DNA of 32,000 bases from Rhabdonatronobacter sediminivivens. Lineage in GTDB: Bacteria; Pseudomonadota; Alphaproteobacteria; Rhodobacterales; Rhodobacteraceae. Made by a program: the position numbers and the translations under genes. Location of the stretch: NCBI RefSeq assembly GCF_013415485.1, contig NZ_JACBXS010000036.1, positions 1-32,000 of the forward strand, written 5' to 3'. The notes under the pieces are model-generated. The model saw nothing but the letters and a program-made list of their open reading frames with translations, was not told where the DNA came from and searched no databases. Shown piece after piece: positions 5,412 to 30,696 of this stretch; positions within the stretch are counted from its first letter, which is position 1, and every line of letters starts with the position of its first letter.

Positions 5412-5605
5412 GCGACAGGGCTTCCCGGACTGAAAATTGAGACAAGGATCAGGGCCATCCCTTAACGCATGGCAGGGACGGATGCCAGCCGTGGATGCAA
5501 CGTGCGCTGGCTTCAGGCTTTCTTGGCGGTGCGCCGCTTAGGGTGGCGCCAAGTTTCCCGGCAGCCGCCCTGTCGCCCCCGCACCAACCCCCGGAGCCTG
5601 CGTTC

Positions 5606-9179: not shown

Positions 9180-10315
9180 TGATCTCGCCCCGCGCGTTTC
9201 ATGCCGCCCTGGCGGCCGAGGGCGTCGATTTCCTGGCCGGGGTGCCCGATTCCCTGCTCAAGGAGTTCTGCGCCTATGTGGATGCCGCCCTGCCCCCCGA
9301 AGGGCATGTGATCGCCGCCAATGAAGGCACCGCCGTGGGGCTGGCGGCGGGCCATCACCTGGCCACCGGCAGCCTGCCGCTGGTCTATCTGCAGAATTCG
9401 GGGCTGGGGAACACGGTCAACCCGATCCTGTCGCTGGCCGACCCCGAGGTCTACGCCCTGCCGATGATCGTCATGGTGGGCTGGCGCGGCGCCCCCGGCG
9501 TCAAGGATGAGCCCCAGCACGTCAAGCAGGGCCGGGTCACGCCCGCGCTGCTCGATGCGATGGAACTGCCATACCGCGCCCTGGACGGCGACCCCGAGGC
9601 CGCCGCCGAGGCCGCCGCCTGGGCTTGCCGCACCGCGCGCGAGACCTCCGCGCCGGTGGTGCTGCTGGTGCACAAGGGCGCCTTTGCCAAGGCCGAGGAA
9701 AAGCGCCCCGCGCGCGACATCCCCGACACCATGCTGACGCGCGAGGCCGCGATCCGGCTGATCACCGGCACCCTGCCCGCCGGCGCCACCATCGTTGCCA
9801 CCACCGGCATGATCTCGCGCGAGCTCTACGAATCGCGCGGGGCGCTGGGGCAGGACCGGTCCGGCGATTTCCTGACCGTGGGGTCCATGGGTCATGCCTC
9901 GCAGATCGCGCTGGGGATCGCGCGGGCAAGGCCCGGCGCGCAGGTGGTCTGCCTGGATGGCGATGGCGCGGCGCTGATGCATCTGGGCGGCATGGCCACG
10001 GTGGGCACCAGCGCAACCGGCGATCTGCTGCATGTGGTGCTCAACAATGGCGCCCATGACAGCGTCGGCGGGCAGCCCACGGTGGCGCAGCAGATCGCGC
10101 TTACGGGGATCGCGCGGGCCTGCGGCTATGACGCCGTCGAAGGCCCGGTCGAGGCCGAGGCCGATATCCGCGCCCAGGTCGATCGCCTGGCGCAGGCCCC
10201 GGGCCGGCGCTTCCTGGAGGTGCGCGTCCGCCCCGGTTCGCGCGCCGATCTGGGCCGGCCAAAGGAAAGCCCCGCGGAAAACAAGGCGCAATTCATCGCC
10301 CGGCTGCGCGGCTGA
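9176..10315 (+). CDS. ppd: Phosphonopyruvate decarboxylase (ThDP-dependent)
   Basis: [58 protein letters not shown]. Its ATG overlaps the pepM stop (ATGA). Confidence 0.95.
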
Positions 10316-10360
10316 CCCCGCGCGCCGCCACAGGACATTCAGACAGAACGGGAGACGCCG

Positions 10361-11494
10361 ATGCCGTCCCAGCCGTGGAGTTTCCACAACCCCGTGAAGG
10401 TGCAGTTCGGGGCGCAATCGCGCAAGGGGCTGGCCGCCACCCTGGCCGGGCAGAAGCTGCTGGTGGTGACCACCGCCCGCGGGCGCGCGCAATTCACCGA
10501 TGACCCGCATCTGGGCACCATCCAGGCCGATCTGACCTGGGTGGACAGCGTCAGCCCCAATCCCGGGCTGACCGACACGCAAAGGGAAATCGACCGGCTG
10601 GCGGGGCAGGACTTCGATGCGGTGCTGGCCTTTGGCGGCGGCTCGGCCATGGATGCGGCCAAGGCGCTGGCGGCGGCGCTGACCCCGGGGCTGGCCTGCC
10701 GCGATCTGGCCAGGCTGATCGACGATCCGGGCGCGCATCTGGACCGACCCCTGCTGCCCATCCATGCGGTCACCACCACCTCCGGCACCGGGGCCGAGGT
10801 CACGCCCTTTGCCACCATCTGGGACCATGAAAACCGCAGGAAACTGTCGCTGGCCAGCCCGCGTCTGTTCCCGGCCACGGCGGTGGTGGATCCGGAACTG
10901 ACCCACGGGCTGCCCGCTGCGGCCACGCTGGGCACCAGCCTGGACGCCATGAACCAGGCGTTCGAATCGGTCTGGAACCGCAACCGCACGCCGATGACCA
11001 CGCTGATGGCCGCCCGCGCCATCGGCCTGGCGCTGCAGGCGATCCCGCGGCTGGTGGCCGATCTGGACGACCACCCCGCCCGCGCCCAGATCGCCGAGGC
11101 CAGCCTGCTGGCGGGGCTGTGCATCAGCCAGACCCGCACCGCGATCTGCCATTCCATGTCCTATCCGCTGACCGCGCATTTCGGCATCGCCCACGGGCTG
11201 GCCTGTGCCGCCACCATGTCGGCGGTGGCCCATGAGGTGCTGGAGCACGCCCCCGATGGCCTGGACGAGGTCGCCGCGCTGAACGGCATGGCGGGGGCCC
11301 GCGCGCTGGTGGCGCACCTGGACACGGTGCTGGCGGGGACCGATCTGCGCGCCCTTGTCGCCGCCGACCTGCCAGAGCCGGAAGCCATCCTCGCCCTGCG
11401 CGGCGAGATGTTCACGCCCGGGCGCAGTGACAATTTCATCCTGCCCGTGGATCATGACATGCTGGGCCGGGTGCTGACACGCGCCCTTGGTTGA
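10361..11494 (+). CDS. Group III iron-containing alcohol dehydrogenase, predicted phosphonoacetaldehyde reductase (PhpC/FomC-like)
   Basis: WSFHNPVKVQFG, AFGGGSAMDAAKA, and a His-rich metal site ...CHSMSYPLTAHFGIAHG. GGGAG lies 6 nt upstream of the ATG. The functional call rests on its position directly after pepM-ppd. Confidence 0.85.
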   Translation: MPSQPWSFHNPVKVQFGAQSRKGLAATLAGQKLLVVTTARGRAQFTDDPHLGTIQADLTWVDSVSPNPGLTDTQREIDRLAGQDFDAVLAFGGGSAMDAAKALAAALTPGLACRDLARLIDDPGAHLDRPLLPIHAVTTTSGTGAEVTPFATIWDHENRRKLSLASPRLFPATAVVDPELTHGLPAAATLGTSLDAMNQAFESVWNRNRTPMTTLMAARAIGLALQAIPRLVADLDDHPARAQIAEASLLAGLCISQTRTAICHSMSYPLTAHFGIAHGLACAATMSAVAHEVLEHAPDGLDEVAALNGMAGARALVAHLDTVLAGTDLRALVAADLPEPEAILALRGEMFTPGRSDNFILPVDHDMLGRVLTRALG

Positions 11495-11515
11495 AGCCTT
11501 GCCCGGGGGGACAGG

Positions 11516-17300: not shown

Positions 17301-17482
17301 GCGCGCGGCCAGGCTGGCGGGCGGCGCCCTGCCCGTATCCTGTCGGCATCTTGCCCGTGCCGGGGCCGCATGCCAGTCTGGCGCAGTTTTCATGCGACGT
17401 GACATGCTCTGCAAACCCGGACCCATATGCCCATGCCTGTGACGCCCTGCCCGCATATCCAGACCGGTGCCCCCCGCGCCCA

Positions 17483-17530
17483 TCTGGCATCACGCGCCCC
17501 TCTGGCATCACGCGCCCCTCTGGCATCACC
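17483..17530 (+). repeat. 18-bp direct tandem repeat x2.7 (tctggcatcacgcgcccc) in the 278-bp gap upstream of the 1716-aa gene
   Basis: 17483-17500 and 17501-17518 are identical. 17519-17530 is a partial third copy. The repeat ends 49 nt before ATG 17579. Confidence 0.9.
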
Positions 17531-17578
17531 CCCGGCCCGATACGTCCTTGTCCTTTCGCCGCTGTCCAGGAACCGCCC

Positions 17579-20500
17579 ATGACCTTCGAAGAACAGTTGA
17601 CGATCCTGCGTGCCTCGCGGCATCTGCACAGGAAGTGGTATCTTCAGACCTATCCCGAAGTGGCCGCCGAAGGGGCCGATCCGGCCGAACACTACCTGCG
17701 CGAGGGGGCGCTCAAAGGGTACAGCCCCGGCAAGTTCTTCGACACGCAGTTGTATCTTTCACTCTATCCCGATGTCGCGGAAAGCGGTCTCAATCCGCTG
17801 GTGCATTACGAACGCATCGGGGCGGGCGAAAACCGCATCGCCAACCCCACCCGGGCGGCCATGCGCGACCGGCAGGAAAAGGTGCGCGCCATCCGCCGCG
17901 CAGAGCAGCAGGGCAACGGCCAGCCCCCCGGAAACAGCGTCGGCACCCCCGCCGAACCCTCCTCCCCCCCCCGCACTGCGGCACCCGCGGCAGAGTGGCG
18001 TGCGAAGGAAGGGTTGCAGAAGGTCATCCGCGGGATCGATTTCACCAAGCGGCGGAACTTTCTGCTGTTCTCGGCCCTGCATGCGGCGACGGATGCGCAG
18101 ATTGCGAAACATGCGGACCTGACCCGCGCGCTGTGTCGGCTGATCACCGATCTTGGCCTCACCTGGCACCAGGGGGGCACCGGGCCGAAACCTGCCACCG
18201 CGGGGGCGCGCCCGGGTATCGCGGTGCTGACCACAGGCAGCTTTGATCCCGAAACCGATCGCGCCCTGCTGGATCTTGCCCGGAGCGAAAACCCGGGCGC
18301 GGATATCCTGATCTGCGCGCCCGAAGGGGTCATCGACATCCAGCCCGCCCCGGGCTGCGCCCCTGATGAGGGGGTCGCGGAAGCGCCGGAGCCTGGCCCT
18401 GCTGCGGGATCGGGCAGATCGCGGCCCGGACCATGCGCCACGCTGGCCCGGGCGCTGGCCCGGGCCAGCCGCGCCTATACCCATGACGCCCCGGCGGGCA
18501 TGGATGCGCTGATCCGGGGCGTGCCGCTGACCGTCACCGGCGATCCGTTCTACGCGGGCTGGGGGTTCACCGATGACCGCGCCGCGCTGCGCGGGCGGGA
18601 GCGCCAGCTGGATGTGACCGGGTTCCTGACGATCCTGTTCTTCCTGCTGCCGGACGACCCCTCCCCGTCCGGAGATCCCGTCGCCAGGGTACTGGACCGG
18701 ATCATCGCCACATACCGGGGGGGGACCGCGCGCAGCGCGGCGGCACTGCCCGACAGATCGGGGCTGATGTCCTATGCCGCCGCCCGCAAGGCCAGGGCCG
18801 AAACCCCCGATGCCCCCCGCTACCAGGCTCATGTCAAGGCCAGGATGGCCCTGAACAGCGCCGCCCTGGCGGCCTGCCAGGCGGGCACCTGGCCGGCCTT
18901 TCTCGAAACCCCTGTGCGCGCGCATCTGTCCCTCGGCACGCGCCGGGAAATGGTCGACCGGCTGATCGGCCAGGCGGGGCTGGCGCGGCTGCGCACGGGC
19001 GCGGCGCGGCGCCTGCTGGCCGCGATGATCTGCGGGCTGGCCCATACCGCCGATCATCTGGACCCGGTGATGCCCGAGGTGGCCCGGCTTCTGGGCCGCG
19101 GGGAATGCGCGCGGCTGATTTCGGCGCTGGCGCGCATCTCGGGGCGCCCCTCGGCGACGCTGGTGCCCGGCTGGATGAGCGATGCCGGGGCAGGCACAGG
19201 GGCAGGGACAGGAGCAGGCACGGGGAGCCCCGCAGCCGCACCCGATGACCTGATGCTGGCGGTGATGCAGGTCCTGCCGGGCCAGGGGGGGGACGGGCTG
19301 CCAACGCTGCTGGACTGGGCGCAGCAGTGCCAGGCGCGCGGGCATCGTGGAGCGGCACTGCAGTTGCTGGAATGCTGTTTCCTGACCGGGCGCTGCCCGC
19401 CCGAGGCGCTGGCCCTGGCCATCGACCTGCTTTGGCAGGGGTTCGAGGTCGCGGCCGCGACCGAGATGCTGACCCTTGCCGCGCGCTGCTGGCCCGAATG
19501 GCAGGGCGGGCATTTCCCCATCCTGCTGGCGCAATTGACGGCAGTGCGCGGCGATGCACCGGCCACGCTTGACGCCCTGATCGGCGTCGCCCATGCCGGC
19601 GCTGCCGATGCCCTGCGCAACGCCACATTTGACGCGCTGCTGGCCCGGCATTACCCCGGCCTGCCGCTGACGGCGGCGCTGGAACGCATGGCGACAGAGG
19701 GGGGTCAGCCGGATGAGGACGGGTCCGGACAGGCCCCCGATCCACTGGCCCCCGATCCACTGGCCCCCGATCCACTGGCCCGCGCGCGCTATCTGTCCGG
19801 CCAGCGCCGCCCGGCCGAGGCCCAGGCCCTGCTGGCCGCGCTTCCGGAGGCCGAAGCCGACAGCGATGCCGCGCGGATCGAGATGAGCACCGCCCTGGCG
19901 CTGCAGGGCCGTTTCAAACAGGCCGACACCCTGCTGGGCCCGAACCCCGAAGGCGCCTGCTTTGACCAGGCGGTCCGGCTGGCCGCGCTTGTCGGCGATA
20001 CCGCCCGGGCAAAGGCCCTGGCCAGCATGGCACGCCGGCGCAAGACCGCGCTGGCCCCCGCAACCCGGCGTCTGATGCACCAGACACGCGGCGATTTTGC
20101 CGGCACGATGGAGGCCTGGCGCGCCGATCCTGCCGCCGCGCTGGCCGCGCGCCATCTGGGCATCCGGCTGGCGCGCAGCCTGCAGGCCCTGACCGCCGGA
20201 ACCGGCCAGCGGCTGCTGGTGGCAATGGTCGACACGCCCGGCGGCGATGCGGCCTGGAGCGGGCTTCTGCCCCGGCTGGCCAGGGCCTGTGCCGGGCATG
20301 AGCTGCATATCGCCTGCGACCGGGGCCTGGCGCCGGTTCTGGCGCGGTCCTTCCCGCAGATCGCATTCGTGCCCTGCGCGCGCCAGCCCGGACCGATACC
20401 GGTCACCGACAGGCCCGGCCACCTGCCCGCGGCCGAGCTTCTGGCGCTGTTCGATGCCGAGGGCTGGGACGCCGCCATCGCCGCGGACCGGGTTGCGCTG

Positions 20501-22729
20501 ATCACCGATCTGGCCGCCGATCTGGCCGACAGTCCCGCCGCGTTCGACCCCCGCCCCGGCCTGCTGCCCGACCCCGTCCGGGTGGAGGCCTGGCAGGCAC
20601 GGCTGGAGGGGTTGCCGCGCCCGCTGGTGGGGCTTGCCTGGCGCGGCGGGCGCGGCAACGGGCTGCTGGCGCGGATGGAGGATCTGACCCCGCAGGAGGT
20701 TGCGCATCTGGTCCAGGCCGCCGAGGCCGGTTTCCTGTGCCTGCACGGACCCGAGGCCGCCGCCGATCTGCGCGAGATCGATGCCGCGGGCACCAACCGG
20801 GTGGTGCGGCCCGCCGACCTGGCCCCCGATCCCGCAGCAGACCCGGCAGCAGGCCCGGCCACCGACCCGGTTGCGGACCCCGAGGAGATGCTGGCGCTGA
20901 TGGCCTGTCTTGATGCGGTGATCGCCACCGATCCGCAGACCCGCGCGCTGGCGGGGGCGGGCGGCTGCCGGGTCTGGTACCCGGCACCGATGCCGTCCAA
21001 CCGGGACTGGGGGCGTTTCGCGCTGATGGAAACCGATTACCGCTTCGCCACGGCCACCTATGTGGATGCGCCCCGCCCCGGCGACCGCTCCGGGCTGGTG
21101 AAACGGCTGGCGCAGGGGGTTGCCGAACTGGCCCGTGACGATCTGAACCGCCGTCTTGACCGGATCGAGACGCTTCTGGCCACCGAGAACGCGGGCAGCG
21201 AGGCGATGAACTATGAATTCCGCCGCGCCATCATCGATGCCGAGGAAGACATCCTGACCCACCGCATCCACCGTGATGCCCGCTACTGGGCGATCCGCGC
21301 GCGGGTGGTGGAGAAACTGGGCGTGCGCGCCGAAGCGGCGCTGTGCTGGGGCCAGGCCTGCGCCCAGACCCGCACGCCTGATCCCGCCCTTCTGCGCGCC
21401 CACTGGATCGCACAGGTCTGGGCCGGCCAGCCCGACCTGGCCGAACGCTTCGGCCCGGTGGATCACACCGACCTCCCGGCCGAGGCGCTGTCCCATGTCA
21501 CCACATTGCGCAACGACCGCATTGCCAATGACCTGTGCGACGAGGGGCTGCACCTGCTGGCCGAAGGCCAGCGCGAGAGCGCCGCCGACAAGTTCCGCCA
21601 GGCCGTGCGCGCCTCGTGGCAGCAGCCAGACCATGGCGCGCCGCTGGAGGAGATGGTCACGCGGCTGGCCCGGCTTGATGTCTTTGCCAACCCGCCCGCG
21701 CCCCGGCGCGAAATCGCCATGCGGGTCCGCGCGCTGCCGGATCTGACCTCGTATATCACCCATGCCTCGACCCTGCCGGCGCAAAGCCATCGCGGGCAGG
21801 CGGATCTGGCGGCAGATCAGCCGCGCTCGGTCTTCTGTTCGGGGTATATCTTCTCGGGCTCGGGGGCGGTGGTGGATTTCCTGCGCCAGAGCGCGGCGGT
21901 CACCGTGCCGGGCTATGTGGATGGCGACATCCAGCCCTTCGATACCGAACTCAACATCCTGCGCCGTTTCTACGGGCTGCAGCATCTGCTGGACCTGCCG
22001 CCTGAACAGCTGTCGATCGAACATCTGGGCGAATTCCTGCTGGGCTCGGTGCTGGGGCTGATCGCGTATCCCTCGGACCGCTACCGGCTGGACATGTCGC
22101 GCAAACGCTCGCTGCGCGGCGCCTTCGAAGCCACCGGCCGGATGCCCGACCTGATCGATCTGTGCGATCTTCTGCTGGATACGGTTGAAAGCGGCAGCGG
22201 CCCCGATGCCGAGATCATCCTGGATGCCGCCTGTCGCATGGTGAACGGTCTGGCGCCACGGCTGGCCCGGCCCGGTCAGCCGGTGGTGCTGTGGAACAAC
22301 TGCATCCAGGCCTGGAACGCGCGCACCCTGGCGGTGATGGAGCGGTCGGTGATGGTTGCCGTGCAGCGCGATCCGCGCGACCAGTATGCGTCCCAATTCT
22401 ATGAGCGTGGCGACAAGGACCGCCGGAACGAGCTGGAGAACTTCATCTCCCGCACGCATCATCACCAGCGCATGCGCGCACAGCTGGACCTGATACCGGG
22501 GCTGCGCGCGCGCATCCTGGATGTGCGTTTCGAGGATGTGGTCACCGATCCGGACACCCGCGCCAGGCTTCTGGACTTCGCCGCCCTTCCCTCAGACGGG
22601 TTCCGCGAGGGGCTGTATTTCCAGCCCCCGGACTCGCTGCGCAACATCGGCATTCACCGCGCCTTCCCCGATCAGGACGCCATCGGACGGATCGCGCGGG
22701 AATTCCCGGACCTGCTCTGGAAAGGCTGA
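17579..22729 (+). CDS. 1716-aa megaprotein: shared N-module, KpsC/KpsS-like domain, TPR/helical region, GT9-like GT-B domain, second helical region, and sulfotransferase-like domain
   Basis: MTFEEQLTILRASRHLHRKWYLQTYPEVAAEGADPAEHYLREGALKGYSPGKFFDTQLYLSLYPDVAESGLNPLVHYERIG. KpsC/S-like: THDAPAGMDALIRGVPLTVTGDPFYAGWGFTDDR. GT9-like: LVGLAWRGGRGNG...EEMLALMACLDAVIATDPQTRALAGAGGCRVWYPAP...DW. Sulfotransferase-like: YIFSGSGAVVDFL, VQRDPRDQYASQ, VRFEDVVTDPDTRARLLDFAAL, NIGIH. AGGA lies 9 nt upstream of ATG 17579, so the track start 17351 is rejected. Confidence 0.9.
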   Translation: MTFEEQLTILRASRHLHRKWYLQTYPEVAAEGADPAEHYLREGALKGYSPGKFFDTQLYLSLYPDVAESGLNPLVHYERIGAGENRIANPTRAAMRDRQEKVRAIRRAEQQGNGQPPGNSVGTPAEPSSPPRTAAPAAEWRAKEGLQKVIRGIDFTKRRNFLLFSALHAATDAQIAKHADLTRALCRLITDLGLTWHQGGTGPKPATAGARPGIAVLTTGSFDPETDRALLDLARSENPGADILICAPEGVIDIQPAPGCAPDEGVAEAPEPGPAAGSGRSRPGPCATLARALARASRAYTHDAPAGMDALIRGVPLTVTGDPFYAGWGFTDDRAALRGRERQLDVTGFLTILFFLLPDDPSPSGDPVARVLDRIIATYRGGTARSAAALPDRSGLMSYAAARKARAETPDAPRYQAHVKARMALNSAALAACQAGTWPAFLETPVRAHLSLGTRREMVDRLIGQAGLARLRTGAARRLLAAMICGLAHTADHLDPVMPEVARLLGRGECARLISALARISGRPSATLVPGWMSDAGAGTGAGTGAGTGSPAAAPDDLMLAVMQVLPGQGGDGLPTLLDWAQQCQARGHRGAALQLLECCFLTGRCPPEALALAIDLLWQGFEVAAATEMLTLAARCWPEWQGGHFPILLAQLTAVRGDAPATLDALIGVAHAGAADALRNATFDALLARHYPGLPLTAALERMATEGGQPDEDGSGQAPDPLAPDPLAPDPLARARYLSGQRRPAEAQALLAALPEAEADSDAARIEMSTALALQGRFKQADTLLGPNPEGACFDQAVRLAALVGDTARAKALASMARRRKTALAPATRRLMHQTRGDFAGTMEAWRADPAAALAARHLGIRLARSLQALTAGTGQRLLVAMVDTPGGDAAWSGLLPRLARACAGHELHIACDRGLAPVLARSFPQIAFVPCARQPGPIPVTDRPGHLPAAELLALFDAEGWDAAIAADRVALITDLAADLADSPAAFDPRPGLLPDPVRVEAWQARLEGLPRPLVGLAWRGGRGNGLLARMEDLTPQEVAHLVQAAEAGFLCLHGPEAAADLREIDAAGTNRVVRPADLAPDPAADPAAGPATDPVADPEEMLALMACLDAVIATDPQTRALAGAGGCRVWYPAPMPSNRDWGRFALMETDYRFATATYVDAPRPGDRSGLVKRLAQGVAELARDDLNRRLDRIETLLATENAGSEAMNYEFRRAIIDAEEDILTHRIHRDARYWAIRARVVEKLGVRAEAALCWGQACAQTRTPDPALLRAHWIAQVWAGQPDLAERFGPVDHTDLPAEALSHVTTLRNDRIANDLCDEGLHLLAEGQRESAADKFRQAVRASWQQPDHGAPLEEMVTRLARLDVFANPPAPRREIAMRVRALPDLTSYITHASTLPAQSHRGQADLAADQPRSVFCSGYIFSGSGAVVDFLRQSAAVTVPGYVDGDIQPFDTELNILRRFYGLQHLLDLPPEQLSIEHLGEFLLGSVLGLIAYPSDRYRLDMSRKRSLRGAFEATGRMPDLIDLCDLLLDTVESGSGPDAEIILDAACRMVNGLAPRLARPGQPVVLWNNCIQAWNARTLAVMERSVMVAVQRDPRDQYASQFYERGDKDRRNELENFISRTHHHQRMRAQLDLIPGLRARILDVRFEDVVTDPDTRARLLDFAALPSDGFREGLYFQPPDSLRNIGIHRAFPDQDAIGRIAREFPDLLWKG
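18451..18599 (+). repeat. 149-bp tract, identical except for one base, to 12367-12515 (copy B)
   Basis: See copy A. Both copies encode the identical peptide ALARASRAYTHDAPAGMDALIRGVPLTVTGDPFYAGWGFTDDRAALRGR. Confidence 0.9.
19187..19222 (+). repeat. Imperfect 12-bp x3 in-frame repeat, encoding (GAGT)3
   Basis: ggggcaggcaca / ggggcagggaca / ggagcaggcacg, inside the 1716-aa gene. Confidence 0.8.
19732..19780 (+). repeat. Perfect 15-bp x3.3 in-frame tandem repeat, encoding (PDPLA)3
   Basis: cccgatccactggcc occurs at 19736-19750, 19751-19765 and 19766-19780, preceded by a partial ggcc. Confidence 0.95.
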
Positions 22730-22907
22730 GGGCCATATGCGGATCCACCCCGCCCCCCTGCGTGTGAAGCTGCCTGCAGAAGTGACCCACTCGGGTGGAT
22801 TTGCGGTTCTCGCCCCCGGCAGTTGCGGATAACCTGCAGGCCGGGCCGCCGAAACTGCCAGCGTCACGGTGGGGTGCCCGGCCACAAGGGAAGACTGGAC
22901 CCGTGCA

Positions 22908-23660
22908 ATGACCGGCTTTGCAGACAGCAGGAAAAACAGACCCGCAGACACGCGAAGCCCTTCGAAGGAGACGGATGCTTCGGCGCCATCCGCGCTCGAT
23001 GTGGCCATCGCATCCCTGGCGACCCGGGGCAAGCTGCGCTTCGTGCAGGTCGGTGCCAATGACGGCAAGCTGGAAGACCCGATACATCACCATGTTCTGG
23101 CGCATGGGGCCGAGGCCCTTCTGATCGAACCCCAGCCCTGGCTGATCGCGGCGCTGCGCGACAATTACGCCGCCTTTCGCGGCAAGCTGATGATCGAGAA
23201 CATCGCCATCGGCCCGGACCACGGCACGCTGTCCCTGCATACCCTGAAGCGCGCGTTCTGGGACGATTACACCGCCCGGGACGGCCGCAGCCCGACCATC
23301 CTGTTCTCCCCGGACCGGGATCTGCTCAGACGCCGTATTGCCAGACGCATGAAGGTGGACATCGACGAGGCCGAGCGGCGCCTGGACACCATCGATGTGC
23401 CCATGGCGCCGCTGTCGGATGTGCTGGCCCGCCACGGCATGACGGATATCGACGTGCTGCAGGTCGATTGCGAGGGCTGGGACGTCAAGGTCATCCTGTC
23501 GCTGGGAGAGGTCCGCCCCGCCGTGATCCATTTCGAATCCCTGAGCCTGAGCGACGCCGACAGGCAGGCGTTTTCGGACTGGAGCAGGCAGAACGGTTAT
23601 GGCTGCATTCAGGGCTGGAAGGACACGCTGGCGATCCGCGGCCTGTCCCATCCCGCATGA
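22908..23660 (+). CDS. FkbM-family methyltransferase
   Basis: LRFVQVGANDGKLEDPI, LLIEPQP, IDVLQVDCEGWDVKVILSL, VIHFES. The start is uncertain: ATG 22908 or GTG 22869. Confidence 0.85.
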   Translation: MTGFADSRKNRPADTRSPSKETDASAPSALDVAIASLATRGKLRFVQVGANDGKLEDPIHHHVLAHGAEALLIEPQPWLIAALRDNYAAFRGKLMIENIAIGPDHGTLSLHTLKRAFWDDYTARDGRSPTILFSPDRDLLRRRIARRMKVDIDEAERRLDTIDVPMAPLSDVLARHGMTDIDVLQVDCEGWDVKVILSLGEVRPAVIHFESLSLSDADRQAFSDWSRQNGYGCIQGWKDTLAIRGLSHPA

Positions 23661-23706: not shown

Positions 23707-24426
23707 CTAGAGCAGGCTGATCCCCCGCGCCTTGCGCGCCAGGGCAATGTCTTCGAGCAGGTGGAACTGGTCCTCCCAGTCGATATCCATGACCAGCCGT
23801 TCGGGCATGTCATGCAGATACGGGTTGGTGCCGATCCGGTCATCGACCGCGCGCATCCGGGCGAAGGGCATCAGATAGGCGGCGTGGTTGATCTCGAACA
23901 GCGGCTTGATGTCCTGGCTGCGGGGCCATTTCTCGACCGTGTTGTCGTAATTGTAAGGGCCGTTTTCATCCCAGATGAACTTGTGCAGCGTGGTGACGGT
24001 GACCAGGCTGTCATGGCCCCGCGCTTCGGCCGCCCGCCAGGCGGCGATCAGGTCCGCAAACACCGCCGCGGTGAGGAACGGATGCGTCACATGGGTCATC
24101 ATCATCACGCCGGTCTCGCGCAGGGTCGCGGCGTAGCGGATGAAGGCGCTAATCGGGGTTGAGGACGCGCCCAGCTCATCGGGGCGTTCGATGGGACTCA
24201 CGCGGCGGTCATGGTCCCGGGCAAACTGCGTGGCATAGTCCAGCACCACGGGATCATTGGTCGAGACAATGATCTCCGAGACCTCGGGCACCCGGGCAAG
24301 CTGGTTCAGCTTCAGCTCCAGCAACCCGCCGTCGAAGCCGGCGAAGGGGCGGGTGTTCTTCTGCTTCACCCGCTCGCTGCCCGCGCGGGCGGGGATCAGG
24401 GCGATGACCCTGCCTGTGTCAGTCAT
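23707..24426 (-). CDS. Acylneuraminate cytidylyltransferase-family protein (CMP-ulosonic acid synthetase-like), paralog 1
   Basis: VIALIPARAGSERVKQKNTRPFAG is the N-terminal CTP_transf_3-type motif. 239 aa. Confidence 0.85.
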   Translation of the reverse strand: MTDTGRVIALIPARAGSERVKQKNTRPFAGFDGGLLELKLNQLARVPEVSEIIVSTNDPVVLDYATQFARDHDRRVSPIERPDELGASSTPISAFIRYAATLRETGVMMMTHVTHPFLTAAVFADLIAAWRAAEARGHDSLVTVTTLHKFIWDENGPYNYDNTVEKWPRSQDIKPLFEINHAAYLMPFARMRAVDDRIGTNPYLHDMPERLVMDIDWEDQFHLLEDIALARKARGISLL

Positions 24427-24510: not shown

Positions 24511-25251
24511 TCACGGGGCCTGGAAGTCCGGGTAAGGTATGCCGTTCTCGCGGATCCAGTCCTCGGTGGTCTTGAGGTCCTCAAGGCTGTGGACATCCAG
24601 GCAGCCCTTGGTCGGATACGGCTTGATCCGGGTGCCCATGCAATCCCACGGCCCCTGCCCGCCCGGCGTGCGGATCGCATCCGCGCGCAGCACCCAGATG
24701 GAATGATCGAAGAAATAGCAGGTGGGCAGGTCCTGGCGGTTGGCCGAGACCGGCGCCCCGGTATCGACAAAGGGTTTCAGCAGGCCTTCGTCGGTCACGC
24801 CCTTGGCGCGCATGGGATGGTATTCGTTGTGTTCATGGCTGGGCACCACGGAACTGAGGCTCGCATCCGCCAGAAGCTGGTCGATGCAATCGTCGATGAT
24901 CTGTTCGGATATGGTGCCGACATTGGCATGCTGCACGATCACGATATCCACCGGGCCGTCGGCCTCGATCACCTTCAGCGCATGGCGCACCGCATCGCAG
25001 CTTTGCGCGGTGTCGCTGGCCAGTTCATCGGGACGGCGGATCTTCGCATACCCGGCCTGTGCCGCCGTATCGAGGATCTTCTCGTCATCGCTGCTGATGT
25101 AGTAACGGCCGATATGGCGGCTGCGCCGCGCCGCCGCCGCTGCCCAATGCAGCAGCGGATGGCCCAGCACCGGCAGGATGTTCTTGTCTTTCAGCGAGCT
25201 TCCCCCCCGCCCGATCATCAATGCCGCGATCGTCGCGCGCTTTTCACTCAT
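24511..25251 (-). CDS. Acylneuraminate cytidylyltransferase-family protein, paralog 2
   Basis: MSEKRATIAALMIGRGGSSLKDKNILPVLGHPLLHW. ATG at 25251 lies 5 nt after the upstream stop. The track start 25410 is rejected because that extension is Arg/Gly junk. Confidence 0.85.
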   Translation of the reverse strand: MSEKRATIAALMIGRGGSSLKDKNILPVLGHPLLHWAAAAARRSRHIGRYYISSDDEKILDTAAQAGYAKIRRPDELASDTAQSCDAVRHALKVIEADGPVDIVIVQHANVGTISEQIIDDCIDQLLADASLSSVVPSHEHNEYHPMRAKGVTDEGLLKPFVDTGAPVSANRQDLPTCYFFDHSIWVLRADAIRTPGGQGPWDCMGTRIKPYPTKGCLDVHSLEDLKTTEDWIRENGIPYPDFQAP

Positions 25252-25256: not shown

Positions 25257-26798
25257 TTACCCTGCCTTTCGGAAATACTTGTGGTGTTCGCTCTCGTTCA
25301 CGCGCTTCTCCTCCGAGCCGATGATCACCTCGGCCTCGCGGATGGCGGCGACGTAATCGGCGAATTCGCGGGTGGTCAGATCCAGCGCCACGGCATCGAA
25401 ATGGGCCCATTCGGTATTGCCCAGCTTCACATGCTTTTCCACCATCCGCGCGCCCGCCGCCACCGCCAGGGTTGACGCCAGGGCGCCGAAATCATGGCTG
25501 GAATAGGCCGGGACGATATGGGGGTGCGCCTTCGACAGATCCCGGTAATGGCGGATCACGCCGATGTCGCAATCATGCAGCGGCGTGGGATAGGCGGAGT
25601 TGCACTGCATCAGATACAGCCGGTCGCAACTGGTGAAGGTCTCCAGCACCCATTGTTCATAGGCGGTGTCGGTCATGCCCGTGGACAGCACGATCCCGCC
25701 TTTGTACGTGTTCGCCACATGGGCCAGATAGTCGGTATGTTCCGAAATGGTCGAGGGCAGCTTGACCAGCTCGGGCTCGAACTGCTGCATGAAGCGGAAC
25801 GAGGGTTCATCGAGCACCGAGGCGAACCAGCGGATGCCAAGATCACGGCACAGCCGGTCCAGGAATTCGAAATCTTCCTGGCTCAGTTCCAGCGCGTGGC
25901 GATAATCGCGGAAGGTGGTGCCGAAGGGCGAGACATATTTCCCGTCCAGCTGCTCCTTGGGGTAGAAGCTTTCCACGTCGCGCTTCTGGACCTTGACGAA
26001 ATCGGCCCCTGCGGCGCGGGCGGCGCGCACCATGCGTTCCAGCCGGTTGCGGTCGCCGAAATGGTTGGTGGTCAGTTCCGCGGTGACCAGCACCCGGTCG
26101 GGGTCGGTGTCGGTGCCGCTGTCCAGTTCGGGCAGGAAACGGGTGTTCAGCTCCTCAGGGGTCAGGCCGGAAAACGCCCGGTCGCCCACATGCTGGATGT
26201 CCACCTCGCTGTCGCGCAGCATGTACAGGGTGTTGATGAAATAGAATTCCTGCGGGGAAATGCGGGCCATGCGCTCGCCGGTCTCGGTGGGGGCGTAATC
26301 ATGGTCGATGGCATGGGCATAGCCCTTGGTGGCGGCGAAATCGAAGCCCAGCATATAGACCGTCTGGGTGCGCCCGCGCTGGCGCGCGATCAGGCGCGCC
26401 AGCCGCAGCGCCGAGACAAAGAGCACATCCTCGATCACGAAATCCTCGCCCGGGGTGTCGGTGACCAGGCGGCTCATCATCACGTCGGTGCCTTCCTGAT
26501 CGCCGCGCACATGGCGCGCGTGCGCCACATCGCCGCGCGGCGGGGCGATATCCTGCGGGGTCACATAAAGCCGTGAGCGCCAGCCGCTGGCCTTGAGCGC
26601 CTCATGCACCCAGCCGTCATGAAAGATGGTGATGTCGCAGGGCGCAATGCGTTCGGCATCGTTGAGCCCGATCACCAGCGCATTGGACAGAAGCGCCGGG
26701 TTGATCCGGTCAACCGACGGTCCCTTGCCCAGAATGAAGATCGTATCGGTGCCGAATGTCGACGCGATACTTTCGACCCGGTTCGAGAAATTCGCCAT
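25257..26798 (-). CDS. NeuB-family (sialic/ulosonic acid synthase) TIM-barrel domain fused to an N-terminal ~235-aa GxGPS transferase-like domain; no SAF domain
   Basis: C-terminal half: VTAELTTNHFGDRNRLERMVRAARAAGADFVKVQKRD...VKLPSTI...YSSHDFG...ARMVEKHV. N-terminal half: TIFILGKGPSVDRINPALLSNALVIGLNDA...TVYMLGFDF. Start ATG 26798 has GAAGGGA ~10 nt upstream; the alternative is 26828. Confidence 0.85.
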   Translation of the reverse strand: MANFSNRVESIASTFGTDTIFILGKGPSVDRINPALLSNALVIGLNDAERIAPCDITIFHDGWVHEALKASGWRSRLYVTPQDIAPPRGDVAHARHVRGDQEGTDVMMSRLVTDTPGEDFVIEDVLFVSALRLARLIARQRGRTQTVYMLGFDFAATKGYAHAIDHDYAPTETGERMARISPQEFYFINTLYMLRDSEVDIQHVGDRAFSGLTPEELNTRFLPELDSGTDTDPDRVLVTAELTTNHFGDRNRLERMVRAARAAGADFVKVQKRDVESFYPKEQLDGKYVSPFGTTFRDYRHALELSQEDFEFLDRLCRDLGIRWFASVLDEPSFRFMQQFEPELVKLPSTISEHTDYLAHVANTYKGGIVLSTGMTDTAYEQWVLETFTSCDRLYLMQCNSAYPTPLHDCDIGVIRHYRDLSKAHPHIVPAYSSHDFGALASTLAVAAGARMVEKHVKLGNTEWAHFDAVALDLTTREFADYVAAIREAEVIIGSEEKRVNESEHHKYFRKAG

Positions 26799-27534
26799 GA
26801 TAGGGTTTCCCTTCAACTTCGATATCACAATGATGTTCGCGCGCCAGCATCAGCCCGGGCAGCAGATCCCAGGAATAGGCCCCGCGCGGGTTGGTAAAAC
26901 GGGCAAAGGCCCCGCGCACGACATTATACAGGTTATACACCGCGCAGCCCATCAGGCGGCTTTCGCGGGTCTCGGCCATGCCTTGCAGGATTTCATCACA
27001 CATGGATGACGAAAACCCGCGAATGCGCGACCGGATGGGCACCAGCGTATCGCCGGTCATCAGATGTTCGTTCAGTTCGGGCAGATACAGCAGGCTGCCC
27101 AGATGGGTTGTCCCGTGCCAGAGCGTGAAGGACACGCCCCATTCCTTCAGGCCGGAACAGAAATTCTCGGTCCCGTCGATCGGGTCCAGGATGGCGTAAT
27201 AGCCCGCACTGGTCAGGTCGGTCTCGGCGGAAAAGGTTTCTTCGCCGGCGAAGGTGACATCGGGGATGCGCGCGGCCAGATAGTCATGGATCAGGGTTTC
27301 GATCAGCACGTCCGAGGCGGTGACCGGGCTGCCATCGGGCTTGATGGTGATGTCATAGCGGCTGGCCTGGATGCGCTCCATGTTGGCGCGCACCAGATCC
27401 ATCAGCCCCGCCATCAGGGCGCGGGTCTGCGCCAGATCCGGCAGGGTGTCGGCCTGCAGGCGCGGTTCGGCGGCGGTCGATGCGGCGGCGGTCGATGCAG
27501 CAGGGGGCGGGGCGGCGGGGGGCGGAGGCGTCAT
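26710..27534 (-). CDS. Inositol monophosphatase / CysQ-family phosphatase
   Basis: ILDPIDGTENF and YSWDLLPGLMLARE motifs. Its ATG overlaps the upstream stop (ATGA). Its 3' end overlaps the next gene by 89 nt. The N-terminus is Pro/Ala-rich and contains a 15-bp x2 repeat at 27469-27498. Confidence 0.85.
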   Translation of the reverse strand: MTPPPPAAPPPAASTAAASTAAEPRLQADTLPDLAQTRALMAGLMDLVRANMERIQASRYDITIKPDGSPVTASDVLIETLIHDYLAARIPDVTFAGEETFSAETDLTSAGYYAILDPIDGTENFCSGLKEWGVSFTLWHGTTHLGSLLYLPELNEHLMTGDTLVPIRSRIRGFSSSMCDEILQGMAETRESRLMGCAVYNLYNVVRGAFARFTNPRGAYSWDLLPGLMLAREHHCDIEVEGKPYHGEFLEPGRKYRVDIRHRYDLHSGQGTVG

Positions 27535-30500
27535 TCTGCGGCATTCCTTTCGGCGTCAGCTTTGGACGGAGGGGGATCAAGCGGCTTTTCCAGCCCCAGC
27601 AGGTCGAAGAAATCCACCCGCTCCAGCATGTCCAGCTTGCCCCCCGGCGAGGCGTTGTAGAGCCGGCAGCCATCGCTTTCGACGGCCTTCTGCAGATTGG
27701 CAAAGGCCAGGTTGACCATCTCGGTGCCCGATCCGCCGGGGCGGAAATTGGCCAGCCGTTCGGTCTCCTTGCGGCCGCCGCCGTAGAAATGCGTCACCGC
27801 GCCGGAATAATCCAGATCGACCCCGATGATGTAGATTTCCGAATAGCCCATCAGATGCGCCAGCTGCGCGGCCAGCACCACCACGGTCTCGCCGCGGTGG
27901 AAATGCAGCGGCGCATGGCGGAAGGGGGCCAGCGACAGCTTCAGCCCCGAAGACCCCAGCGGGATCGCGGGCACCGTGGGCGGCTTGCGCCACAGGCAGT
28001 TCGAGGCGACGAAGAATTTCTCGACCGAGGCGCCGTCGGCGTCGATCTCCCCGGCGTGGTTCTTGTAGACAAGCGGATCGGCCACCACCAGGTATTTCGG
28101 CTGCGGCAGGCCCACATCCAGCGCCCGCATCCCGCGGTTGACGCAGAAGATATCCTCGCCCGCCAGCGCGCCCAGCGGCAGATCGGCGATCGACGGGGCA
28201 TTGCCGACGATGAAGCAGCGCTTGCGCCCGGCCAGGTTCAGGGTGGTGCCCGCATCGAAGCCCAGATGGCGCTGCTGCCAGTCGCCGATACGCTCGGCCA
28301 TCTGGGTGAAGCCCAGCCGTTCGGCACAGGCCAGCAACCGCGCGACCACGCCCGCCGACAGCGGCAGGCGGAACAGCAGCCCCGTGGTCAGCGACATGGC
28401 GAACCCGTCCAGGTCGTTCTGCGCCAGCTGGTCCAGAAAGGCGGTGGCCTCGGCCTCGGCCCCGGCGACATCGGCGCGCCCCAGCATGATGTCGATCTTG
28501 TTGCGGATGACGTTCCAGACCTTCCTGACGTTCGCGTCGGTCAGCTCGCCGGGGGCGGGCAGGGCCAGCAGCGCTTCGACCTGCTCCCAGTCGCGCCGGC
28601 GCATGAAGAACTGCAGCAGCTCTTCTTGCTGCACCGGGTCCATCTCCAGCCCCTGGGCGGCGGTCTCGGCGATCCGGGCGGCATGGGTCACGGCGACCGC
28701 ATCGCCCTGCGCGGGATTGAGCAGCATGCCGATGGAATCGGACAGGAACTTGCCGTCATAAAGCGTGGCGATGCGCAAAAGCAGCTCGTGGATTTCCTGC
28801 GGCAGGAAGGATTGCGGCGCGGGGTGCAGCCGGATCAGGTCATAGATCCAGCGGGTGACGCGCAGTGTCTCGATGCTCTTTGGCAGTTTCTGCGTCACCG
28901 CCGCCTGCATCACATCGCGCATGGCGGCGAAATCGCCGCGCCGGTAATGGATTTCGATCATGGCGCGCAGCCACAAGGTGTCGCGCGCGTAGCGGGCCGT
29001 GTATGTCTCCAGCACTTCCTCGCAGTCCTCCAGCCGCGAACTTTCCAGCAACGAGAGCACCAGCGAGGGAAAATAGATGCGCGGCTCCGGCGCGCTTTCC
29101 AGCAGCTTGCGCACCCACCAGATCGAGGCCGAATGGCGGGTATTCGCCGACAGGAGCCGCGCCACCATGGCGCGGACATTCTCGGGGTAGAAGCGGCGGG
29201 CGCGGCGGGCAAACAGCAGCGCCCCGGCCTCGTCCACCGATTGCACGGTGGTGGCCAGCGTCAACATGCCGGTGGCGCGCAGCCGGCCGATGCGGATGGC
29301 CTCGGTGCGCGCGCGCGCGTTTTCGACCCCGATGCGATAGACCCATTCGGGCGGCATGGCCCCGGCCTCGGTGGGGTCGATGGCTTCGACCTTCTGCCAG
29401 CGCTCCAGCGCCACGGCCCAGGCATCCTGGGCGATGGCGACCTCGGAATGCAGCTTCAGATAGGCGATCTCGCGCGGGAATTTGGTGACCAGGCGCTTGG
29501 CCTCTTCTTCGGCCGCGTCCGGATCCCCGGCCTGCACCAGCGCGCGCACGCCGCGCAGATAGCTGCTGGTCTTGGCCACGCCGGTGGCCTTCAGCCCGCG
29601 CTTCAACCAGATATCGGCGGCGCGGGCCCAATCGCCCTGCGCTTCGGCCAGCAGCCCGTCGGCGCGCTGAAAGCCGGTATCCGCATCATGGCTGGCGCGC
29701 AGCCCTTCGACCAGGGCCTCGGCCCGGGGCAGGTCGCCCAGCTGGACAAAGGCTTCGACCACCGAAAGCTGCAGCTTCGGCTCCACCAGGGCGCCGCTGT
29801 CCTCGATCATCTGCCAGCGCAGGGCGACATCGCTCCAGCGTCTGGCCTTCAGCGCCAGCCGGCACCAGGCCTCCAGCAGCAGGGGGTTGGCCTCGAACCG
29901 GGCCAGACCGTCGCGCAGGATCGCATCGGCGCGGGCCAGATCGCCCATTTCCGCCGCCGCCTGGCTCAGCCCGACATAGGGTTCGGCAGGCAGCGCCAGC
30001 GCGTGCTGCCAATGGCGCGAGGCCTCCAGCCAGTCGCCCTTCTTCGCTGCCGCACGGGCCTTGGCCGACAGCCGGTCCAGGGCGGTGCTCTGGCCCGGAG
30101 CGGCGGCGGGCGGGGCGGCGGGCGGCGGGGTGGCGGGGCCGGGTTTCAGCGTGGCCTTGAGCTTGCGTATCTCCTCCTGGGCGGCCTTGGTGGCGGCCTC
30201 GGCAGCGGCCTTGCGGGCTTCGGCAATGGCGGTCTTCCGGACGGATTCGGCCTCCTTGCGGCGGGCGGCTTCCGTGGCCTTCCGGGCCTTCTGGTCCTCG
30301 CTCGCGGCCTTGGCGGGGTTGATGATCCGGTTTTCCGCAACACCGATCACTTCATAGTGGACCAGCGGGTTCAGCCCGCTGGTGGCCACATCCGGGTAGC
30401 GCGAGACATAGAGCGCCGTGTCGAAGAACTTGCCGGGGTTATACCCTTTCTGCGCGCCCTCGGTCAGGTAATGCTCGGCCGGGTCCAGGCCCTGCGCCTT

Positions 30501-30584
30501 CACCTCGGGATAGGTGCTGCGATACCAGCTCTTGTGCAGGTGCTTGGAATTCTTTATCTTTTCCAGTTGTTCGGAAATATCCAC
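27531..30584 (-). CDS. 1017-aa protein: shared N-module, Ala/Lys/Glu coiled coil, long TPR array, and C-terminal GT42/DUF115 (Maf)-like CMP-nonulosonate transferase-like domain
   Basis: GTG start with GGAGG ~8 nt upstream. (M)DISEQLEKIKNSKHLHKSWYRSTYPEVKAQGLDPAEHYLTEGAQKGYNPGKFFDTALYVSRYPDVATSGLNPLVHYEVIG. C-terminus: CFIVGNAPSIADLPLGALAGEDIFCVNRG...LMGYSEIYIIGVDLDY, compare Cst-II IIAGNGPSLKEID...DVFRCNQF...LGYKEIYLSGIDFY. Confidence 0.85.
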   Translation of the reverse strand: MDISEQLEKIKNSKHLHKSWYRSTYPEVKAQGLDPAEHYLTEGAQKGYNPGKFFDTALYVSRYPDVATSGLNPLVHYEVIGVAENRIINPAKAASEDQKARKATEAARRKEAESVRKTAIAEARKAAAEAATKAAQEEIRKLKATLKPGPATPPPAAPPAAAPGQSTALDRLSAKARAAAKKGDWLEASRHWQHALALPAEPYVGLSQAAAEMGDLARADAILRDGLARFEANPLLLEAWCRLALKARRWSDVALRWQMIEDSGALVEPKLQLSVVEAFVQLGDLPRAEALVEGLRASHDADTGFQRADGLLAEAQGDWARAADIWLKRGLKATGVAKTSSYLRGVRALVQAGDPDAAEEEAKRLVTKFPREIAYLKLHSEVAIAQDAWAVALERWQKVEAIDPTEAGAMPPEWVYRIGVENARARTEAIRIGRLRATGMLTLATTVQSVDEAGALLFARRARRFYPENVRAMVARLLSANTRHSASIWWVRKLLESAPEPRIYFPSLVLSLLESSRLEDCEEVLETYTARYARDTLWLRAMIEIHYRRGDFAAMRDVMQAAVTQKLPKSIETLRVTRWIYDLIRLHPAPQSFLPQEIHELLLRIATLYDGKFLSDSIGMLLNPAQGDAVAVTHAARIAETAAQGLEMDPVQQEELLQFFMRRRDWEQVEALLALPAPGELTDANVRKVWNVIRNKIDIMLGRADVAGAEAEATAFLDQLAQNDLDGFAMSLTTGLLFRLPLSAGVVARLLACAERLGFTQMAERIGDWQQRHLGFDAGTTLNLAGRKRCFIVGNAPSIADLPLGALAGEDIFCVNRGMRALDVGLPQPKYLVVADPLVYKNHAGEIDADGASVEKFFVASNCLWRKPPTVPAIPLGSSGLKLSLAPFRHAPLHFHRGETVVVLAAQLAHLMGYSEIYIIGVDLDYSGAVTHFYGGGRKETERLANFRPGGSGTEMVNLAFANLQKAVESDGCRLYNASPGGKLDMLERVDFFDLLGLEKPLDPPPSKADAERNAAE

Positions 30585-30696
30585 CGTCTGACCCCTCCGA
30601 CAGACCCTGTGCTGTCGTGTTGTGCGGCCCCGCCACCGCGCCGGACGGTCCGCGCCTGTCTCTCAATCTGTTACTGCACTGCAGCATGAACAATAT

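Follow-up and report, generated by a model that had tools for sequence, protein, structure and literature searches.

What does a synthase of the sialic acid family make when it lacks a SAF domain and carries a transferase-like domain at its other end? This question was raised by a fusion protein of 513 amino acids (aa) encoded in a 32,000-nucleotide (nt) stretch of Rhabdonatronobacter sediminivivens DNA (assembly GCF_013415485.1, contig NZ_JACBXS010000036.1, positions 1 to 32,000), referred to here as the window. Public databases label the protein 'N-acetylneuraminate synthase family protein' or 'sialic acid synthase SpsE'. We found that the fusion is real and widely conserved, far beyond what chance would allow, and that in most loci surveyed it adjoins a phosphatase gene and a cytidylyltransferase gene. 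Judging from its residues, the sugar that it makes is unlikely to be N-acetylneuraminic acid (Neu5Ac), in line with an earlier note on this DNA, which held that the product need not be Neu5Ac. Our leading explanation, a tentative one to which we give somewhat less than an even chance, sees the barrel as the committed synthase in a module for a cytidine 5'-monophosphate (CMP)-activated ulosonic acid and the N-terminal domain (N-domain) as an accessory sensor that binds a nucleotide or CMP-sugar. The chemistry is familiar, being of the NeuB type; undescribed are the domain architecture, the partnership with an inositol monophosphatase (IMPase)-type phosphatase and a product that is probably a non-aminated ulosonic acid. 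The gene and its two halves are laid out as follows.

25257..26798, minus strand: fusion gene, N-terminal GT42-like domain plus NeuB-type barrel without SAF domain (translated reading frame, Pfam, full-length homologues)
26124..26798, minus strand: N-domain, residues 1-225, Rossmann-like alpha/beta (AlphaFold2 model, hhalign, invariant residues)
25260..26093, minus strand: NeuB-type TIM barrel, residues 236-513 (Pfam and TIGR matches, alignment to Neisseria meningitidis NeuB and to PseI, Foldseek)

The open reading frame (ORF) begins with ATG (MANFSN), and because homologues start at the same Met, the GTG upstream at 26828 is not needed as a start. The GC content of its three codon positions (0.63/0.42/0.81) follows the pattern of a genuine gene in this window of 68% GC. 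A search of 5.8 billion protein clusters, with clustering at 90% identity, returned more than 120 clusters at 61-100% identity to the fusion, most of them about 505-527 aa long and the shorter ones lacking part of one end. When one genome per species was scanned, the fusion was encoded in 203 species genomes from five phyla. The carriers include Alphaproteobacteria (among them marine Rhodobacterales and sphingomonads), Gammaproteobacteria (Halomonas, Pectobacterium, Azomonas and Silvania), Actinobacteria (Nesterenkonia and Demequina), a Deinococcales metagenome-assembled genome, and Cyanobacteria including the picocyanobacterium Prochlorococcus. Plasmid-borne kps-type capsule loci of E. coli and Enterobacter encode it at 45-47% identity over 98-99% of its length; within E. 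coli it is rare (4 of 5,426 complete genomes). The earlier note had considered that the two halves might prove to be separate genes in a corrected assembly. A single ORF was present in all 203 species genomes and on the plasmids, and an assembly artefact or a pair of split genes was therefore rejected. The literature searched contained no description of the fusion architecture or of the phosphatase-fusion-cytidylyltransferase triad.

Long antisense ORFs of up to 1638 aa (9062-13978, 14032-16311 and 17759-22465, all minus strand; 27480-30689 and 25494-26576, plus strand) showed the inverse codon-position GC (GC1 > GC3), and those scanned had no family matches. ORFs such as 25494-26576, 27480-30689 and 17759-22465 were rejected as genes on codon-position GC and regarded as by-products of the 68% GC.

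In Pfam scans, NeuB (PF03102) was the sole match of the fusion protein, spanning residues 256-498 (E 3.5e-44) and positions 1-241 of the 241-position profile, and no SAF domain was detected. The protein scored 131.9 bits on TIGR03569, the NeuB equivalog model (cut-off 399.65), and 113.2 bits on TIGR03586, the PseI equivalog model (cut-off 340.25). Only model positions 2-271 of 329 were aligned in TIGR03569, and both equivalog alignments ended at about position 271-274 of 327-329. Because these alignments end early and the scores fall below the cut-offs, the SAF domain is truly absent and the barrel lies outside both characterised orthologue groups; the earlier division of the protein into an N-domain and a NeuB barrel without SAF was thus borne out. 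Such NeuB homologues are already known, since about 30% of 13,941 nonulosonic acid (NulO) synthases are without SAF (PMC8208679). By fold, the barrel was nearest to PseI (Foldseek E 2.4e-14, target-normalised TM-score 0.68), NeuB and SpsE, followed by the 3-deoxy-D-arabino-heptulosonate 7-phosphate synthases (DAH7PS) and KDO8PS.

Residue equivalences were taken from a profile alignment to N. meningitidis NeuB (NmNeuB). The NmNeuB residues E25, K53, Q55, K129, S132, S154, Y186, S213 and E234 are kept as E241, K269, Q271, K346, S349, S372, Y403, S433 and E454, respectively; the metal ligands H215 and H236 are kept as H435 and H456, and D247 is kept as D468, the last position being approximate. 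These residues are invariant, or nearly so, across the fusion family. In contrast, the catalytic E134 is changed to I351, the pocket residues F112 and N184 to D330 and S401, and T56-H57 to K272-R273, and the replacements I351, D330 and S401 are invariant among close homologues. The SAF residues R314 and F288 of NmNeuB have no counterpart in the aligned fusion. All motifs quoted in the earlier note were found in the protein, namely E241-LTTNHFGD, G264-ADFVKVQKRD, K346-LPS, S433-SHD and V453-EKHV in the barrel, and ILGKGPS (22-28), GLND (44-47) and YMLGFDF (148-154) in the N-domain.

The alignment showed the C-terminal half to be a NeuB-type barrel that, judged from its residues, would condense phosphoenolpyruvate (PEP) with an aldose in a metal-dependent manner, its metal and PEP ligands being intact. 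These ligands were those whose loss the earlier note would have taken as fatal to its claim; all were present, and a dead barrel was rejected. Elements that fit N-acetylmannosamine in NmNeuB are gone, namely SAF with R314, F112 (D330) and E134 (I351). Residues invariant in this family specifically are S290-P-F-G293, Y299-R300 and H466-F-D468. Invariant basic residues new to the barrel are K272, R273, R300 and H466, with K498, H506 and K507 in the C-terminal tail. This tail (about 494-513) carries the conserved K498...E504-H-H506-K507-Y508 (SEHHKY) and is flexible, with an AlphaFold predicted local distance difference test (pLDDT) below about 51. We infer that the flexible basic SEHHKY tail may take over the capping role of SAF, and the polar and basic replacements would fit a hydroxylated, probably phosphorylated aldose better than an acetamido sugar.

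The genomic context was surveyed in 82 loci (83 with the window), in which all ORFs within 9 kb of the fusion were clustered de novo. The partners of the fusion in the window are as follows.

26710..27534, minus strand: IMPase-family phosphatase, 274 aa (Pfam Inositol_P, E 5.8e-18)
26710..26798, minus strand: out-of-frame overlap of the IMPase and fusion genes, 89 nt (sequence)
24511..25251, minus strand: cytidylyltransferase of the acylneuraminate/KdsB superfamily (Pfam CTP_transf_3, E 4.8e-14)

The translated IMPase retains the catalytic motifs DPIDGT and WD. In 66 of the 82 loci, the gene just upstream of the fusion, on its strand, encoded an IMPase, and most loci without it were at contig ends or in Nesterenkonia. 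A cytidylyltransferase gene was directly downstream in 64 loci, being NeuA-like (cluster c2) in 49 and KdsB-type in 15. The KdsB-type loci were mostly actinobacterial, and a tested representative scored 214 bits on NCBIfam NF003952 (cut-off 193). In the window, the probable start of this gene (MSEKRAT) is 6 nt past the fusion stop, although the listed ORF extends upstream to 25410. The only recurring families in the clustering were the IMPase (60 loci), the fusion (83 loci) and the downstream cytidylyltransferase, while outside them the loci differed in content, with genes for methyltransferases, dTDP-sugars, GT2 enzymes and parts of ABC transporters. On the upstream side of the IMPase no fixed place for a transferase was found, the position there being variable or empty.

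The bases at 26710..26798 encode both the IMPase tail (YRVDIRHRYDLHSGQGTVG, followed by the stop) and the fusion N-terminus (MANFSNRVESIASTFGTDTIFILGKGPSV). An overlap of 47-104 nt (mode 74) with the same frame offset was present in 55 of 60 loci from several phyla, spanning the last 20-30 or so IMPase codons and the first 15-35 or so fusion codons; in E. coli, Enterobacter, Silvania and one cyanobacterium it was only 4 nt. The overlap suggests that the two genes are tightly coupled in translation and inherited together, and the three genes of the triad are best read as a compact, horizontally mobile cassette. None of the window ORFs scanned contained NeuC-, PseB/C- or LegB/C-type domains, so the earlier statement that these genes are missing holds for every ORF scanned. 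The suggestion of a Kdn- or Kdo-like route with a phosphatase fared less evenly: it fits the conserved triad, but the phosphatase is of the IMPase type and not of the HAD type. In the window, two cytidylyltransferase genes follow the fusion in tandem, of which only that next to the fusion is a triad member. The other may have a phosphonate or a different acid sugar as its substrate.

23707..24426, minus strand: second cytidylyltransferase, 239 aa, outside the conserved triad (Pfam CTP_transf_3, E 2.4e-9)

The AlphaFold2 model of the N-domain, built from a 19-sequence alignment, had a pLDDT of 81.9 and a predicted TM-score (pTM) of 0.81 and showed a Rossmann-like alpha/beta fold with a disordered, lid-like loop at residues 158-178. 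The full-length model reached a pTM of 0.82, which suggests that the N-domain and the barrel pack together in a defined way. The model places every near-invariant residue of the N-domain (G24 K25 G26, N46 D47, G151 F152 D153 F154, H203 G205 and S210) at the C-terminal end of a beta-strand. This is the usual ligand crest of such folds, and its conservation counts against a purely structural N-domain. Distant representatives had a mean identity to the window protein of 27% in the N-domain and 53% in the barrel, with 33% and 59% for E. coli; by these comparisons the N-domain was shown to evolve about twice as fast as the barrel.

Searched with a hidden Markov model (HMM) of the N-domain, 1.84 billion representative proteins gave only 88 matches; those of full length (482-533 aa) were without exception the same fusion. 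The other matches were short sequences, the majority of which are probably fragments; short sequences of unchecked completeness aside, the N-domain was not seen outside the fusion architecture in this set. At E<=10, Pfam had no match, and hence no GT42 or DUF115 model, for the N-domain of the window protein (residues 1-235) or of 18 homologues. A profile search of PDB sequences gave no match for the N-domain, and Foldseek found none in the PDB at E<=1e-3, with no GT42 or GT29 structure among its results. Fifteen viral predicted structures did match by Foldseek (E 4e-7 to 1e-3, query-normalised TM-score 0.36-0.57), one of them named MptE-like, and a DUF115-named entry was found at E 0.014. A SIS-type sugar-phosphate isomerase was considered on account of the GKGxS motif and weak Foldseek matches to the SIS domains of GFAT and GlcN6P-deaminase, and was rejected at an hhalign probability of 1.1% against the verified SIS domain of E. 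coli KdsD.

The relationship of the N-domain was traced through a neighbour in the window that lies beyond the IMPase gene.

27531..30584, minus strand: 1017-aa protein, tetratricopeptide repeats (TPR) plus C-terminal GT42/DUF115-like domain (Pfam, hhalign, PHROG)
27531-28319, minus strand: GT42/DUF115-like C-domain of the 1017-aa protein, residues about 756-1017

A 106-sequence profile of the N-domain matched the family of this C-domain at an hhalign probability of 93.7% (E 2e-7, 129 columns, N-domain residues 18-159), whereas 1.4% was the maximum for seven unrelated control families drawn from these loci, several being Rossmann-like. By BLASTP, the N-domain and the 1017-aa protein aligned colinearly but without significance (E 0.39). 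The C-domain in turn matched the sialyltransferase CstII at 93.2% (E 2.9e-7, 142 columns), the CstII sequence used having been checked as identical to 1RO7. It also matched Pfam MptE-like (E 2.2e-5, below the gathering score) and, over the whole profile, the PHROG alpha-2,3-sialyltransferase family (E 6.9e-4). On these profile matches, the N-domain appears to be a far-diverged member of the GT42/DUF115 superfamily and is homologous to the C-domain of the 1017-aa protein, which is itself a candidate for the dedicated transferase of the locus. The parallel that had been noticed between the motifs of the two domains therefore reflects genuine homology, and the GT42/DUF115-like character proposed for the C-domain was upheld. 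The likeness of the N-domain itself to GT42 and DUF115 stood mainly by way of this bridge and, by fold, through the viral predicted structures; directly, CstII was matched at a weak 22%, confined to motif 1, nothing was found in the PDB, and the sole PHROG match, again the alpha-2,3-sialyltransferase family, was non-significant (E 0.45).

In the bridge alignment, CstII G8-N-G-P-S12, N31 and G152-I-D-F155 correspond to G24-K-G-x-S28, N46 and G151-F-D-F154 of the N-domain, all near-invariant, and the loop at 158-178, after GFDF, stands where CstII has a lid that orders on CMP binding. Y156 of CstII corresponds to A155 and R129 to a gap; Y160 of the N-domain is variable, the equivalent of CstII Y162 not being conserved. 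His188 of CstII is the established catalytic base (PMC4202792). No conserved His was found at this position in the N-domain, where I-S-x-Q-E (180-184) stands, as placed by secondary-structure register only.

The reading that we favour, a committed synthase with an accessory sensor domain, would work as follows. The barrel would condense PEP with an aldose phosphate from central metabolism, mannose 6-phosphate giving a Kdn-type product or arabinose 5-phosphate a Kdo-type one; the translationally coupled IMPase would strip the phosphate from the product, and the cytidylyltransferase would then make the CMP-sugar. Sialyltransferase-like glycosyltransferases specific to each locus would transfer the sugar, the 1017-aa protein with its TPR and GT42-like parts doing so in the window. 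The module would thereby supply a CMP-activated, non-aminated 3-deoxy-2-ulosonic acid, Kdn- or Kdo-like, to surface polysaccharide loci of the ABC-transporter type. The N-domain would no longer be the transferase of the pathway but a nucleotide- or CMP-sugar-binding accessory docked on the barrel. An accessory role is proposed because the N-domain is without equivalents of H188 and Y156, evolves fast, was found with no other partner and coexists with more canonical transferase domains. Its most likely task would be that of an end-product sensor throttling the first committed step, or else active-site capping, by analogy with the chorismate mutase (CM) and ACT domains on DAH7P synthases.

Several known systems resemble the module in part. 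The NeuB/PseI/LegI enzymes (PF03102; NmNeuB 1XUZ, Campylobacter jejuni PseI 8H2C) have in common with the fusion the TIM barrel, the metal His pair, the PEP-binding Lys and Ser, E25 and E234. In contrast to them, the fusion is without SAF and R314, has Ile, Asp and Ser for E134, F112 and N184, and carries an extra N-domain of 225 aa, the invariant SPFG..Y-R insert and the SEHHKY tail, with no amino-sugar genes nearby. Phosphorylated routes to sialic acids are represented by animal NANS and NANP and by the Kdn-9-P synthase and Kdn-9-P phosphatase of Bacteroides. Like the module, they use a NeuB-family synthase, a dedicated phosphatase and a CMP-synthetase, and a NeuC-type step is dispensable if the aldose phosphate comes from central metabolism. 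However, the phosphatase of the module is of the IMPase family, whereas those of the known Kdn, Kdo and Neu5Ac-9-P routes are HAD enzymes, and the module synthase has no SAF. The Kdo pathway (KdsD-KdsA-KdsC-KdsB) likewise runs through four steps and a phosphate intermediate, and a KdsB-type partner occurs in 15 loci; its synthase, however, is KdsA-type and not NeuB-type, KDO8PS being a distant fold relative, its phosphatase is KdsC, and the N-domain is not a SIS isomerase. GT42 (CstII, 1RO7) and DUF115/Maf/MptE-like proteins (PF01973) have the same motif order as the N-domain (GxGxS, N, GxDF), a variant of the Rossmann-like fold and, following GxDF, a flexible loop, but the N-domain is without conserved H188, Y156, Y162 and R129, has no PDB fold or Pfam match and was seen full-length only as a fusion to the NeuB barrel. 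The DAH7P synthases with regulatory domains (Thermotoga maritima, ACT-like, 1RZM; the DAH7PS-CM enzymes of Listeria and Geobacillus, 3NVT and 5J6F) are sister PEP-utilising barrels found among the fold matches, and their extra domains, some of them derived from enzymes, sense the downstream product. This likeness is one of analogy, since the accessory fold and the pathway differ from those of the fusion.

A bolder form of the favoured reading, which we consider unlikely as a whole, is that the triad constitutes an undescribed, self-contained CMP-ulosonic acid route, with a NeuB-type barrel acting on a sugar phosphate, an IMPase-type ulosonate-phosphate phosphatase and a pseudo-sialyltransferase N-domain that would bind the CMP-sugar of its own pathway as an allosteric control. 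To our knowledge, literature searches included, sialic-acid-family biosynthesis has no described example of such a regulatory architecture. A sugar other than Neu5Ac, pseudaminic acid (Pse), legionaminic acid (Leg), Kdn or Kdo is also conceivable as the product.

A number of points weigh against a synthase with a sensor domain. The sensor role is inferred by analogy only, and an active transferase would keep the same conserved crest. Within 9 kb, 68 of the 83 loci had no other recognised sialyltransferase-like glycosyltransferase, which makes the N-domain the only glycosyltransferase-type domain always travelling with the module. The CstII equivalences past residue 159 follow secondary-structure register and have no significant alignment behind them, and the Q183-E184 pair near the H188 position could serve as a base. 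The NeuA-like (49 loci) and KdsB-type (15 loci) cytidylyltransferases point to different sugars, and the IMPase might act before the barrel, freeing the aldose, instead of after it. The literature searched held no biochemistry on, and no paper about, any family member. Some of these points would suit a fusion of synthase and transferase, in which the N-domain would be an active, highly diverged GT42/DUF115-type glycosyltransferase adding the CMP-ulosonic acid to an acceptor, either as a homo-oligomer or as a chain cap. We hold this to be a serious rival, though somewhat less likely than the sensor reading. Multi-enzyme fusions are common in ABC-transporter capsule systems, and the N-domain is homologous to a GT42-like domain, keeps the CstII donor-site motifs nearly invariant (GNGPS as GKGxS, N31 as N46, GIDF as GFDF), has the lid-like loop and is the one glycosyltransferase-type domain that all loci have, the flanking ones being variable or unrecognised. 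Yet His is missing at the H188 position, Ala stands in place of Y156, and conservation is lacking at the positions of Y162 and R129; Foldseek returned no GT42 or GT29 structure from the PDB, and the N-domains of 19 members had no Pfam match to GT42, DUF115 or any other family. Moreover, the fused steps would be non-consecutive, with CMP activation between them, a far more canonical GT42-like domain is encoded next door in the window, and it is difficult to imagine a single acceptor shared by Actinobacteria, Cyanobacteria and Proteobacteria.

Enzyme fusions as a rule link successive steps, and this would be the case here if the N-domain were an MptE-like nucleotide-dependent phosphotransferase, or another small-molecule enzyme, making the aldose phosphate for the barrel. 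The order of kinase, synthase and phosphatase would then be that of the animal GNE/NANS/NANP route and would explain the dedicated phosphatase; the DUF115/MptE-like superfamily includes an ATP-dependent pyrophosphokinase, the Pfam family of the neighbour domain and one viral match bear that name, and K25 of the crest with the acidic D47 and D153 could bind a Mg-nucleotide. We regard this explanation as improbable, however, given that searches by sequence and by fold matched no kinase (Foldseek against the PDB, PDB profile search, Pfam), that the best-supported homologue is sialyltransferase-like and not MptE, that mannose 6-phosphate and arabinose 5-phosphate are already available from central metabolism, and that the related idea of a SIS-type isomerase was rejected at 1.1%. 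Finally, the protein might be an ordinary Neu5Ac, Pse or Leg synthase with an inert, decaying leftover domain that serves at most for structure or dimerisation. The faster evolution of the N-domain would agree with this, and about 30% of NulO synthases are without SAF anyway (PMC8208679). The scores far under the cut-offs (132 against 400 and 113 against 340 bits), the loss of E134, F112 and R314, the lack of amino-sugar pathway genes in the window, the obligatory linkage to an IMPase and a near-invariant polar crest kept over five phyla, unlike what an inert domain would show, make it very improbable.

These distinctions matter for annotation, as the sialic acid label would lead genome-based glycan prediction to report sialic acid from loci that almost certainly do not produce it. 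The portable three-gene cassette, found in about 200 species, probably serves to add an acidic sugar to capsules or cell-wall polymers. Once this sugar is identified, bacterial glycobiology would gain a biosynthetic route and possibly a new monosaccharide, and an IMPase subfamily would have a function. The N-domain is a clean test case for whether a glycosyltransferase fold has been co-opted for sensing or has stayed an enzyme.

Recognisable sialyltransferase-like glycosyltransferases stood beside the module in 15 of the 83 loci, the window included. GT42-like neighbours were found in the window, its relatives and one Sphingomonas locus. GT29 is the animal or plant sialyltransferase family, and GT29-like neighbours were found in a cyanobacterium (Pfam PF00777, E 1.3e-13), Sphingobium, Reyranella and Demequina; neighbours combining TPR with a GT29-like part were found in Nesterenkonia, Demequina and another actinobacterial genome. 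Proteins with a GT29-type motif L adjoin the module in five loci (L041 6687-9236, L039 7474-8208, L024 8054-9196, L051 17856-19343, L066 3304-5316) and in relatives. GT29-type enzymes accept CMP-Kdo as well as CMP-sialic acids (PMC11288761), and these neighbours therefore do not separate C8 from C9 products. The neighbour families c15 (607 aa in E. coli), c10, c8 and c22 were rejected as hidden GT42 relatives (hhalign at most 2%); c22 and one c15 member have a GT29-like motif L. In a cyanobacterium, motif L is fused to a 600-aa family that is also present in the E. coli locus.

On the E. coli plasmid NZ_CP145673 (8792-13527) and the Enterobacter plasmid NZ_CP058198 (8846-13551), the module lies in region 2 of kps (ABC-transporter) loci flanked by insertion sequence (IS) elements. 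There it adjoins the 600-aa protein, a double GT2 enzyme and a large S-adenosylmethionine (SAM) methyltransferase with a coiled coil. An actinobacterial locus (L079) encodes beside the fusion a second SAF-less and much more canonical NeuB homologue (15093-16007, minus strand; 263 bits on TIGR03569), and this locus may make two different ulosonic acids.

Elsewhere in the window, a phosphonate biosynthesis trio occupies 7848-11494 on the plus strand. It consists of a PEP mutase fused to an N-terminal cytidylyltransferase-like domain (TIGR02320, 396 bits), a phosphonopyruvate decarboxylase (TIGR03297, 467 bits) and a phosphonate-type Fe-alcohol dehydrogenase, and the locus probably builds a phosphonate-decorated polysaccharide of the 2-hydroxyethylphosphonate type. 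Two long plus-strand genes, 11516-14158 (880 aa) and 17351-22729 (1792 aa), each have a short KpsC/KpsS 'Capsule_synth' match, with most of their length free of family matches. The 880-aa protein also has TPR and an APH/choline-kinase-like phosphotransferase domain, and the 1792-aa protein a weakly sulfotransferase-like C-terminus; from these matches, both look like multi-domain capsule polymerases or modifiers. The other genes noted were those for a UDP-glucose 6-dehydrogenase (2498-3835, minus strand), a crescentin- or SMC-like coiled-coil protein (3726-5411, minus strand), a DUF2793 protein (5495-6715, plus strand) and an FkbM-type methyltransferase (22869-23660, plus strand).

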